In this document: one piece after another, positions 2,092 to 4,092 of the stretch
Numbering within the stretch: position 1 is the first letter of the stretch
How the letters are laid out: the number at the start of each line of letters is the position of its first letter
Origin: a virus
Lineage: Monodnaviria; Loebvirae; Hofneiviricota; Faserviricetes; Tubulavirales; Inoviridae
Direction: 5' to 3' (one strand)
IMG/VR virus record: IMGVR_UViG_2609459825_000013
Span: 1 to 6,374 of that record
DNA: 6,374 bases
Made by a program: the position numbers and the translations under genes
Notes under the pieces: model-generated
The model's database searches: none
What the model was told of the DNA's origin: nothing
Seen by the model: only the letters and a program-made list of their open reading frames with translations

Positions 2092-4092
2092 ATGACTGAA
2101 TCAGCCATCCTCACAGCGTATAACTCCATCGACGCGGCATCTGTTGCCCTTGGTCGTCCCTGTCTGACGCTGCCCGAACGTGAGCATTTTCGGGCTGAGC
2201 GCGATGTTGCCACTCGCAACCTTGTCACGCTTTCCCGCCAGTATCGTGATGAGGTCGGGGTACTGTCTTCACAGCTTGCCCTGCCACGTAACACGCAGGT
2301 TGACCGTGTGATTTACGGAATTAACTGCACGGATTTATCTCTCGCTGACAGGGGTAAGGCTGCCGGACTGGTTTCACAGTTTGGCTCGTTTTCCTTCACC
2401 GTGGCACACGCTTTCTGCCGTCTTGTTTATCAGCTCGGTGTGAAAAATGCGCTGATGGCGCTTGAGTCCGCGCACCGTTTTGCTTTCTTCAATCAGGACG
2501 GAGACCCTTATGAATTCTCGCTTTTCTGCACTGATGAACAGCTTGCTGAGGTGGCTGATTCGGTTGTTCGTGACTGCCTTGTTTCTCGGGCCATTTATAG
2601 TGATGTTGCAGAACAGCACCTTCTCAATGTAATGGCCTATTTTCAGGCCATCTCCGGCTTTGATTTCGCGCCCGTTTATGCCACTTATCATGAGCGTTAC
2701 GGCGATGAGGGATTGCTTAAACGTCTGACTGATTTGGCTTTTGTCACCCGTTTCCTGCGGGTTGTCCGTGACCAGCGGGTCAATGAGGTCTGCCGCATGC
2801 TCGGCATACTGAACCGCAACGCGCCTTATATTTCCGACTGGCACCGCGACCTCTTTGCTGTCCGCAGTAAACGCGTGAAAAATTATCTCCGGTCCTCCGG
2901 CGTCTTTGATGCCTTTAATGAGCTGGTCTGTACGCTGGAAGATGCGCATAACGCCTCAGTCTCGAATCCGAAAAACCGGATTGCTGAACTCTGCGTTCGT
3001 GGAAAGGCCGTCTGTGAACTGTCCGAAGATATGGGGCTGTCCGGCTACTTCATCGTGCTCACCACGCCGTCACGTTTTCACCCGACGACCAGTTTTAAGG
3101 TTGCCGGAAAATGGCATTCTCGTCCGAATAAAAAATGGTGGGAAGCAGGTTGCCCGACCGTTAAGGATTCGCACGCCTGGCTGAATACCGTCTGGCGTCG
3201 GGTCTGCCGCAGGCTGGATAAAGCCGGTATTCAGATACCCGGTCTGCGCACGGTCGAGCCTCATGCTGACGGTACAACGCACTGGAATTTCCTGATTTAC
3301 TGCAATCCCCATGAGAGCGCAACGGTGCTGGCCATTTTCCGTGAAGAGGCCATGCGCGATGAGCCGGATGAAAAGGGGGCGAAAGAGCACCGTATTTGTA
3401 TTGAGGCTATTGACCCTGAAAAGGGTGATGGTTTCCGTTACATCGTGAAGTACATCACCAAAATGGCGGGTGATGTCAGTGCGGATGGTATTACCGCCCT
3501 GAATGACCGTTATTCTGCCCGTTCATTCTGTGATGCCGTCAGCCGTGCCGCCTGCTGGCAGAAAGCAACGCGCCTTCGCCTGTTCCAGTTCTTTGGCGTT
3601 CCCTCCGTTACGGCTTACCGCCAGATGCGCAGCTTCCGCGCACCGCTTGAGGCGCATCATATCAATATGCAGCAGTTCACGCCGCAGCAGGTCGCCGAAC
3701 TGGAAGCCATCCGCATGGCCTGTGATGCAGGCGATTTCCGGACCTATATCCTGCTGAACGGCGGTTTCTTCTGTTCTGAACGTCTGCTTCGCCCGTTTTA
3801 CGTTCAGCCGCAGGAAGGTGGTAAACCCCGTTTTAACCGTTACGGTGAACCCTGCGCACCGGTGATTTCCGGTTTCATGTTTGGCCCCGTTCCGGTCATA
3901 ACCCGTTTTATGGGCTGTGTTGTCCGCCGTATGACCCCCGCAGAAAAAATCCGCGCAGAGGAAGTCAGAAGCGGCAGCAGCTATGAATCTGTGTTTATTT
4001 CGTCGGCTTCACGACACCGCACGACGCGCTCCCGCGCGGCGGGTGGGGGCGGCGAAGCCGACCCTTGGACTTGTGACAATAACTGTCCCTGA
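2092..4092 (+). CDS. Rolling-circle replication initiator of the P2 gpA / phiX174 gpA superfamily (666 aa)
   Basis: ATG at 2092 preceded by GGGGGAG (2081-2087). Two-tyrosine active-site motif [10 protein letters not shown] (Tyr codons 3439-3441 and 3451-3453, residues 450 and 454 from this start) matches the Y-x-x-K-Y-x-x-K pattern of phiX174 gpA (YVAKYVNK) and, to my recollection, the Y450/Y454 positions of P2 gpA. His-containing motif [10 protein letters not shown] lies about 55 aa upstream. The track's start at 1990 is a TTG extension overlapping the 81-aa ORF. Confidence 0.85.

Follow-up and report, generated by a model that had tools for sequence, protein, structure and literature searches.

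The stretch of DNA analysed here (the window, 6,374 nucleotides (nt), positions 1 to 6,374 of IMG/VR record IMGVR_UViG_2609459825_000013) comes from an inovirus. The analysis concerns its replication initiator gene, rep, and a 24-nt sequence at the 3′ end of that gene, which we predict to be the origin of plus-strand, (+), replication. The genes follow the order of a filamentous phage, with a secretin gene, an intergenic region, rep, and a gene for a pIII-like protein (Table 1). Megablast of the window against the phage collection gave no match. Among complete Escherichia coli genomes, the window matched 99 of 5426 (~2%), and one Citrobacter plasmid was matched as well. In E. coli 100416, two full prophage copies stand head to tail, each with a unit length of 8739 bp and 98% identical to the window; their order is rep, small genes, pIII-like, pVI-like, Zot, a small minus-strand, (-), open reading frame (ORF), and the secretin gene (GspD). 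The Zot gene lies just beyond the window and is seen in this prophage unit. The gene set is therefore that of the Inoviridae, with secretin and pIII-like genes in the window and Zot in the tandem unit. The window represents about three-quarters of an ~8.7-kb E. coli inovirus prophage that forms a tandem array at dif. Compared with the E. coli 100416 array, it either spans the junction of two tandem copies or derives from a circular form.

Table 1. Features of the window, with positions counted from its first letter.
Feature	Position	Strand	Basis or remark
pIV secretin gene, 3′ part; runs off the left window end	1-1123	+	PF00263 Secretin, E 6.5e-25; PHROG 1012 'assembly (protein IV of M13)', E 4.4e-107
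Intergenic region, 370 nt	1124-1494		Between the secretin gene and the small (-) ORF
attP: two inverted dif-like sites flanking a GC hairpin	1175-1272	+	Inverted repeats I1-I3
Swappable regulatory module: (-) ORF 1495-1710, promoter-like site, most of ORF81	1437-2076		Absent from the E. coli 100416 prophage
Small ORF	1495-1710	-	PHROG 2503 and 3104 for module 1437-2076, functions unknown
ORF81	1845-2090	+	Between a short promoter region and rep
rep, 666 amino acids (aa), P2 gpA-family rolling-circle initiator	2092-4092	+	PF05840, PHROG 91
Rolling-circle motif I region, F320-H330	3049-3081	+	F320, T324, P326, S327 and H330 invariant in 7 diverse GPA Reps
Metal-binding motif, E389-N399; HUH position is H-W-N	3256-3288	+	E389, P390, H391, D393 and H397 invariant
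Two-tyrosine motif, Y450-IVK-Y454-ITK	3439-3462	+	Y450, Y454 and K457 invariant in 33 sequences
Rep C-terminal tail, aa 629-666, predicted disordered; last ten codons are the predicted origin sequence	3976-4089	+	Predicted local distance difference test (pLDDT) <50
GC mini-hairpin GGGCGGCGAAGCCGACCC, directly 5′ of the nick sequence; contains GCGAAGC	4047-4064	+	Single-stranded DNA (ssDNA) fold
Predicted (+) origin core and Rep nick sequence CCTTGGACTTGTGACAATAACTGT; nick predicted near 4067/4068	4063-4086	+	P2 homology, coupling with Rep
141-aa gene at the position of an ssDNA-binding protein gene	4123-4548	+	Weak Pfam match, Putative_G5P, E 0.075; PHROG 30648, function unknown
pIII-like adsorption protein gene, long Gly/Ser linker; runs off the right window end	5184-6374	+	Translation

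A GGAG precedes the start codon of rep, the ATG at 2092, by 6 nt, and the gene closes with a TGA at 4090-4092; the length of its product equals that of the RefSeq coding sequence in a near-identical E. coli prophage. Rep matched the Pfam family PF05840 (Phage_GPA) over residues 206-457 with an E value of 1.1e-48 and 166.4 bits (cut-off 31.4), and PHROG 91, 'nicking at origin of replication', with an E value of 2.4e-128. The Pfam search gave no match at E <= 0.1 to the Ff pII-type families PF05144/PF05145 and none to Rep_trans (PF02486), the family of the CTXphi RstA, VGJphi, and Pf PA0727 initiators, and the score against PF23343 (REP_ORF2-G2P) stayed below threshold (15.7 bits, cut-off 27.8). 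No model in NCBIfam matched Rep, a PDB sequence search with it returned no match, and a scan of genome contigs with it yielded no confirmed relative. In alignment, Rep is 25-29% identical to the Reps of fs2, Dolos, PM2 (P12), P2 (A), and HP1. Its 90%-identity cluster holds 2063 sequences; among the members listed, all named ones come from E. coli and are labeled "replication endonuclease" or "replication protein". The wider Rep clade takes in E. coli, Salmonella, Morganella, Providencia, and Xenorhabdus sequences at 41-98% identity.

Alignment of Rep with those of P2, HP1, PM2, fs2, Dolos, and a CTX variant revealed three invariant blocks, namely motif I (LTTPSRFH), EPHxD..H, and Y..KY..K. Across 33 sequences, T324, P326, S327, and H330 of motif I are invariant and F320 is nearly so. 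Counted from the ATG at 2092, the tyrosines of YIVKYITK are residues 450 and 454, and P2 protein A has YIAKY at identical residue numbers. The first-pass annotation, made from the letters of the sequence, had already read the 2092-4092 ORF as a two-tyrosine Rep of the P2 gpA type, bearing a signature common to P2 gpA and phiX174 and distinct from the Ff pII family. The profile matches and alignments bear this out, the likeness to phiX174 being limited to the surroundings of the tyrosine motif. Rep is confirmed as a P2 gpA-family (PF05840) initiator with a Y-x-x-K-Y module in an inovirus gene set. The AlphaFold2 model of Rep has a mean pLDDT of 87.7, and its C-terminal tail is not conserved outside the peptide PWTCDNNC.

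The metal-binding motif of Rep differs from that of P2. Residue 399, the last of the HUH motif, is Asn in 24/24 aligned members of the enterobacterial clade (EPHxDG.xHWN; about 40-98% identity). In contrast, fs2, Dolos, P2, HP1, and PM2 have His at this position (HWH, HHH, or HNH), and every non-enterobacterial GPA Rep examined likewise ends its HUH motif with His. Since Asn is kept in all 24 clade members, down to 40% identity, HWN appears to be a maintained variant and not a product of decay, which argues for a working form of the HUH motif. Gln is tolerated at the last HUH position in other HUH enzymes. The enterobacterial Reps also share a clade-specific MAG/MSG insertion after the tyrosine motif.

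Just upstream of the rep stop codon, GACCCTTGGACTTGTGACAATAACTGT occupies 4060-4086. The pattern CCTYGGAN8ARTAACTGT, which we refer to as the 24-mer, occurs in a single copy in the window, at 4063-4086, with zero mismatches, where 0.09 copies would be expected at <=3 mismatches. The 24-mer is homologous to P2 CCTCG/GAGTCCTGTCAATAACTGT, in which the slash marks the annotated nick at nt 29892; the P2 GenBank feature, "nick site at ori", reads GCGCCTCG/GAGTCCTGTCAATAACTGT there. The base homologous to P2 nt 29892 would place the nick in the window near 4067/4068. The encoded C-terminus of Rep aligns with P2 APRSPVNNCG, HP1 APWTCVSNCN, and PM2 APWSTENNCN. The 24-mer lies ~37 nt ahead of the ssDNA-binding-type gene, and the E. 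coli tandem array carries two copies of it, one phage length (8739 bp) apart. Single copies also occur in HP1 (inside rep), PM2 (inside gene XII), and fs2 (inside rep, near its end), and in Dolos and the VCE232 element, where each begins at the first base past the rep stop. The first-pass annotation had noted that the P2 origin lies inside gene A, as the GenBank feature agrees, and had proposed that the (+) origin here may also be inside rep rather than intergenic. The comparison, with its P2-like motif at the 3′ end of rep, supports the proposal.

The 24-mer and the GPA-type Rep are found together whichever of the two is used as the query. Similarity to Rep led to 88 GPA-Rep loci in IMG/VR, and 86 of these carry the 24-mer just once, on the rep strand. 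Conversely, a search with nothing but the exact motif gave 79 loci, of which 76 have a same-strand GPA Rep ending at the motif, and the other 3 are cut by the contig end. The place of the 24-mer relative to rep varies: it is 126-807 nt upstream of the stop, inside rep, in ~30-kb P2-like contigs; most 5-12-kb inovirus-like contigs have its 3′ end at -21 to +28 nt relative to the rep stop; and it is at +10 nt in Salmonella and at ~+206/+216 nt in Providencia and Xenorhabdus inoviruses. Within the Rep clade, the contigs examined from Salmonella, Providencia, and Xenorhabdus are inoviruses with Zot; those of Providencia and Xenorhabdus also encode a secretin, and the Providencia contig a recognizable coat protein as well. 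In the Providencia and Xenorhabdus loci (L107, 9088-9258; L109, 4972-5181), the 24-mer is separated from the rep stop by a small ORF of 56-69 aa.

One alternative is that the 24-mer is a Rep-recognized or regulatory element but not the nick site, e.g., a termination-only site, a Rep autoregulatory binding site, or an expression signal for the downstream gene. In every case it is placed after the catalytic domain of Rep and ahead of the following gene, and in the window a hairpin precedes it. However, the homologous P2 sequence contains an annotated nick, and in P2-like phages the element is deep inside rep and hence no intergenic expression signal there. We therefore regard a non-nick role as improbable. 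Hairpins of other sequence do occur at the equivalent place in P2, HP1, the VCE232 CTX variant, Providencia, and Dolos. Since none is evident 5′ of the 24-mer in PM2 or fs2, the upstream hairpin is supportive only.

A second alternative would put the (+) origin in the intergenic region, as in Ff or in the Ig-1 region of CTXphi, and make the 24-mer something else. In its succession of intergenic region, divergent small ORF, and rep, the window does resemble CTXphi with its Ig-1 - rstR - rstA, and the intergenic region is structured (z-score -9.9 for the attP hairpin and -2.0 for 1273-1494). But the intergenic region 1124-1494 has no copy of the motif that accompanies GPA Reps, and its strongest structure is accounted for by the dif-like attP. 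Moreover, the adjoining segment 1437-2076 has been swapped in prophages whose rep genes are nearly the same, and such a swap would be unlikely for a cognate origin. The analogy with CTXphi also fails at the level of the initiator. CTXphi RstA nicks in Ig-1, next to rstR (PMC8265649, PMC4439123). The canonical RstA (359 aa) matches PF02486 with an E value of 9e-19, and a BLASTP comparison of Rep with canonical CTXphi RstA found no significant similarity (best E value 1.7). We considered whether the name 'RstA-like', given to the Reps of VCE232 and pre-CTX, could denote RstA homology and so point to an origin in an Ig-1-like region; this was rejected, as canonical RstA is an unrelated Rep_trans protein. 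The Ig-1 analogy is inapplicable because the 'RstA-like' proteins of VCE232 and pre-CTX belong to a different, GPA-type module. An intergenic origin thus seems quite improbable, and somewhat less credible than the non-nick role. As a separate observation, the VCE232 record (L004, DQ288668) contains an ig-1 (149-703) that is 98-99% identical to that of canonical CTXphi, the region holding the RstA nick site, and it also contains a GPA-type 'RstA-like' gene with a P2-type 24-mer (3302-3325) right past its stop.

Several observations indicate that the 24-mer is conserved as DNA. It is read in the P2 frame in E. coli (PWTCDNNC), and reads ...ALDL with a TGA stop inside the motif in Salmonella; in Providencia and Xenorhabdus it follows rep at a distance of ~200 nt and is not translated. 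In 51 non-redundant motif-anchored loci, the flanks hold ~0-0.5 bits of information and the 24-mer 1-2 bits, including its eight free columns; as the other 16 of its 24 columns are fixed by the search pattern, the apparent conservation is inflated. The argument at the DNA level therefore rests on the eight free columns, the changes of frame, and the reverse test from motif to Rep. In 44 non-redundant loci, third codon positions hold 0.70-0.72 bits in the catalytic motifs, against 1.88 in the 24-mer and 1.77 in its free columns. Read in differing frames or left untranslated, and with its "third codon positions" the most conserved, the 24-mer is therefore a DNA element, and the Rep tail that it encodes, disordered in the AlphaFold2 model over residues 629-666, looks like its passenger. 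The idea that a C-terminal peptide function (PWTCDNNC) conserves 4060-4086, which could appeal to the (A/D)P(W/R)...N(N/S)C translated by P2, HP1, PM2, and the closest E. coli relatives, is very improbable and, as a sole explanation, contradicted, given the untranslated copies of Dolos, the VCE232 CTX variant, and the Providencia and Xenorhabdus inoviruses, the other frame with an internal stop codon in the Salmonella clade and fs2-like contigs, the conservation of synonymous positions, and the predicted disorder of the tail.

Taken together, we favor the reading of an inovirus prophage at dif that combines a P2 gpA-type two-tyrosine nickase with a (+) origin at 4063-4086, most probably within the last ten codons of rep, and we put its probability at about 80%. 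In such a mechanism, Rep would nick the (+) coding strand near 4067/4068, and one of the two tyrosines would become linked to the 5′ end. P2 protein A acts in cis and depends on the host Rep helicase; Rep may likewise act in cis. Host polymerase and helicase would then extend the 3′-OH around the circle or, with the prophage as the alternative template, from the origin of one copy to that of the next, 8739 bp on. The second tyrosine would cut the regenerated origin, and the displaced strand would be sealed into a single-stranded circle. As the tandem prophage holds two origin copies one genome length apart, single-stranded circles could be made straight from the chromosome. For CTXphi, such production of single-stranded circles from the chromosome has been demonstrated, with its own, different origin (PMC8265649).

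Besides the inflated conservation mentioned above, certain points weigh against this reading. The position of the P2 nick is taken from a GenBank feature, and both the strand and the exact bond rest on that annotation. We found no mapped nick in the accessible literature for any GPA-type inovirus, nor for this phage; the VFJphi paper mentions no origin, and a full-text literature search for the origin sequence string gave nothing usable. With HWN, the metal site may differ from that of P2, and sequence beyond the 24-mer may be required for origin function. Furthermore, the (-) origin and the packaging signal of the prophage were not located.

The integration features of the prophage are of the XerCD/dif type, comprising inverted dif-like sites, an ssDNA hairpin, a dif junction, and tandem copies. 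The attP folds as one long ssDNA hairpin with a bulged center (-41.1 kcal/mol), through which the phage would integrate at dif. In E. coli 100416, the attL junction is a hybrid GGTGCGCATAATGT site adjoining hipBA. Sequences ~90% identical to the attP-like stretch 1177-1279 (~100 nt) recur on large conjugative plasmids of E. coli and Klebsiella, at several places per record and partly within an annotated 'hypothetical protein'; they may represent a dif-like site or else a small element that depends on Xer. Further downstream, 1303-1386 forms a branched hairpin with a 9-nt perfect inverted repeat, a candidate minus-strand origin or packaging signal, and a 51-aa hydrophobic (-) ORF without RefSeq annotation (1276-1431) overlaps it.

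In the E. coli 100416 prophage, which is otherwise 98-99.7% identical, the segment 1437-2076 is replaced by unrelated sequence. It looks like an exchangeable immunity or regulatory module, comparable with rstR of CTXphi. A promoter scan placed a promoter-like site, TTTACA-18-TATGAT, at 1782-1811, upstream of ORF81 and rep. It is flanked by two palindromes of the GCGCATGCG type, at 1769-1780 and 1814-1825 (inverted repeat I4), which are candidate operators. On the other side of rep, several small hydrophobic ORFs lie between the 141-aa gene and the pIII-like gene, and the assignment of a coat protein among the gene products is weak (PHROG 17608, E 9e-4). The pIII-like translation has a signal-peptide-like start followed by GGSGSGSGGSSGS repeats. 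At 5851-6362, a 78-nt repeat of 6.6 copies (97% matches) encodes this (GGSGSGSGGSSGS)n linker; its GC content reaches 67%, and its copy number varies among relatives.

Filamentous phages with a gpA-type Rep have been described before, in published work as well as in RefSeq annotation, so this type of system is not new. fs2 and VFJphi have been listed as Pfam05840 two-tyrosine initiators (PMC4863604), and RefSeq names the protein a 'replication endonuclease'; in this respect the first-pass annotation had overstated the novelty. The main value of the present analysis lies in a precise origin prediction and in the HWN variant. The prediction (4063-4086, nick near 4067/4068) is concrete for a prophage family present in 99 of 5426 complete E. 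coli genomes. By extension, it applies to the fs2-type Vibrio phages and pre-CTX variants, for which we did not find origins described. It also follows that the 'RstA-like' proteins of some CTX variants are no RstA homologues, so the Ig-1 origin model is not transferable to these variants. Finally, one DNA element appears to be kept intact while its coding status changes, which would explain the disordered, poorly conserved Rep tail. More tentatively, and with somewhat less than even confidence, we suggest that the 24-nt nick sequence and the GPA Rep travel as a single cassette among tailed phages, corticoviruses, and inoviruses. The nick sequence of the inoviruses would have slid to the rep stop or into the spacer between rep and the ssDNA-binding gene, and would there be the (+) origin of the whole fs2-type group including pre-CTX variants; the Reps of the enterobacterial clade would work with H-U-N as a natural active-site variant.

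Among the known systems, CTXphi and YpfPhi/CUS-1 share the mode of integration, being likewise arranged in tandem at dif with an attP of two inverted dif-like sites that folds in ssDNA (PMC4266046, PMC8265649). A divergent small regulator upstream of rep and an exchangeable regulatory module are further common features. In contrast to the two-tyrosine Rep, canonical CTXphi RstA is a single-tyrosine initiator with its nick in an intergenic region. An identity with YpfPhi/CUS-1 was not supported, as the Rep clusters contain no Yersinia member, although YPO2274 itself was not compared. The UPphi phages were excluded as relatives since they possess gene II. In phiX174, protein A also has two tyrosines three residues apart, and its GF-Y-V-A-K-Y-V-N-K aligns with the tyrosine motif of Rep; however, only GF.Y..KY..K aligns, with no significant similarity beyond it (pairwise E value 0.057). 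The phiX174 origin is also inside the rep gene and reads CAACTTG/ATATTAATAAC (L226, 400-420), against CCTTG/GACTTGTGACAATAAC in the 24-mer. The two share 'CTTG/' and a downstream 'AATAAC', but the spacing from nick to AATAAC differs (5 versus 10 nt), and we treat this resemblance as a lead, not as a test.

P2 protein A, along with its counterparts in 186, HP1, and K139/PV94, shares with Rep the Pfam family, the order of the motifs, and the tyrosines at 450/454. In P2, the nick-region sequence likewise belongs to the coding strand of the rep gene and is read within that ORF in the identical frame. Near-identical origins inside the A homologue have been reported for P2-like phages (PMC3986222). 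The differences are that P2 is a 33.6-kb tailed double-stranded DNA (dsDNA) phage with HWH instead of HWN, and that its protein A has 761 aa, with the origin 428 nt ahead of the stop codon and, after it, an extra C-terminal region that is missing from the window Rep. Corticovirus PM2, an icosahedral, membrane-containing dsDNA phage, encodes in P12 a GPA-family Rep (E 3e-39) and has its 24-mer in the 3′ part of gene XII. The PM2 record (L001, AF155037) has a GenBank 'cleavage site' at 1543-1544, ~1.25 kb upstream of the 24-mer at 2797-2820, both within gene XII.

The nearest counterparts are filamentous phages. In the phage collection, the best tblastn matches of Rep were VFJ, fs2, Vaf1, Shewanella Dolos, and the "RstA-like" proteins of pre-CTX and CTX strain VCE232, followed by P2-like phages and PM2; the matched Reps that were tested belong to PF05840 with E values of 1e-81 to 1e-108. 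For fs2, the Pfam05840 assignment and the module AVGYVAKYLSK were given by Martinez and Campos-Gomez (PMC4863604 Table 2). These Reps are only 25-29% identical to that of the window in alignment (~29-33% over tblastn local segments) and have HNH or HHH, versus HWN in the enterobacterial clade. Their hosts are Vibrio or Shewanella and not E. coli, and in the window the predicted origin is read in the P2 frame, through to the end of rep. However, fs2/VFJphi (genus Saetivirus), Vaf1, Dolos, and VCE232 likewise encode a ~700-aa Phage_GPA initiator with GY(V/I)xKY(L/I)xK. The order of rep, ssDNA-binding gene, coat genes, pIII, pVI, pI, and (pIV) is likewise of the fs2 type, and fs2 and Dolos have an ssDNA-binding gene at the position of the window gene 4123-4548. 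As in the window, the fs2-type group carries the 24-mer at the 3′ end of rep or just past it.

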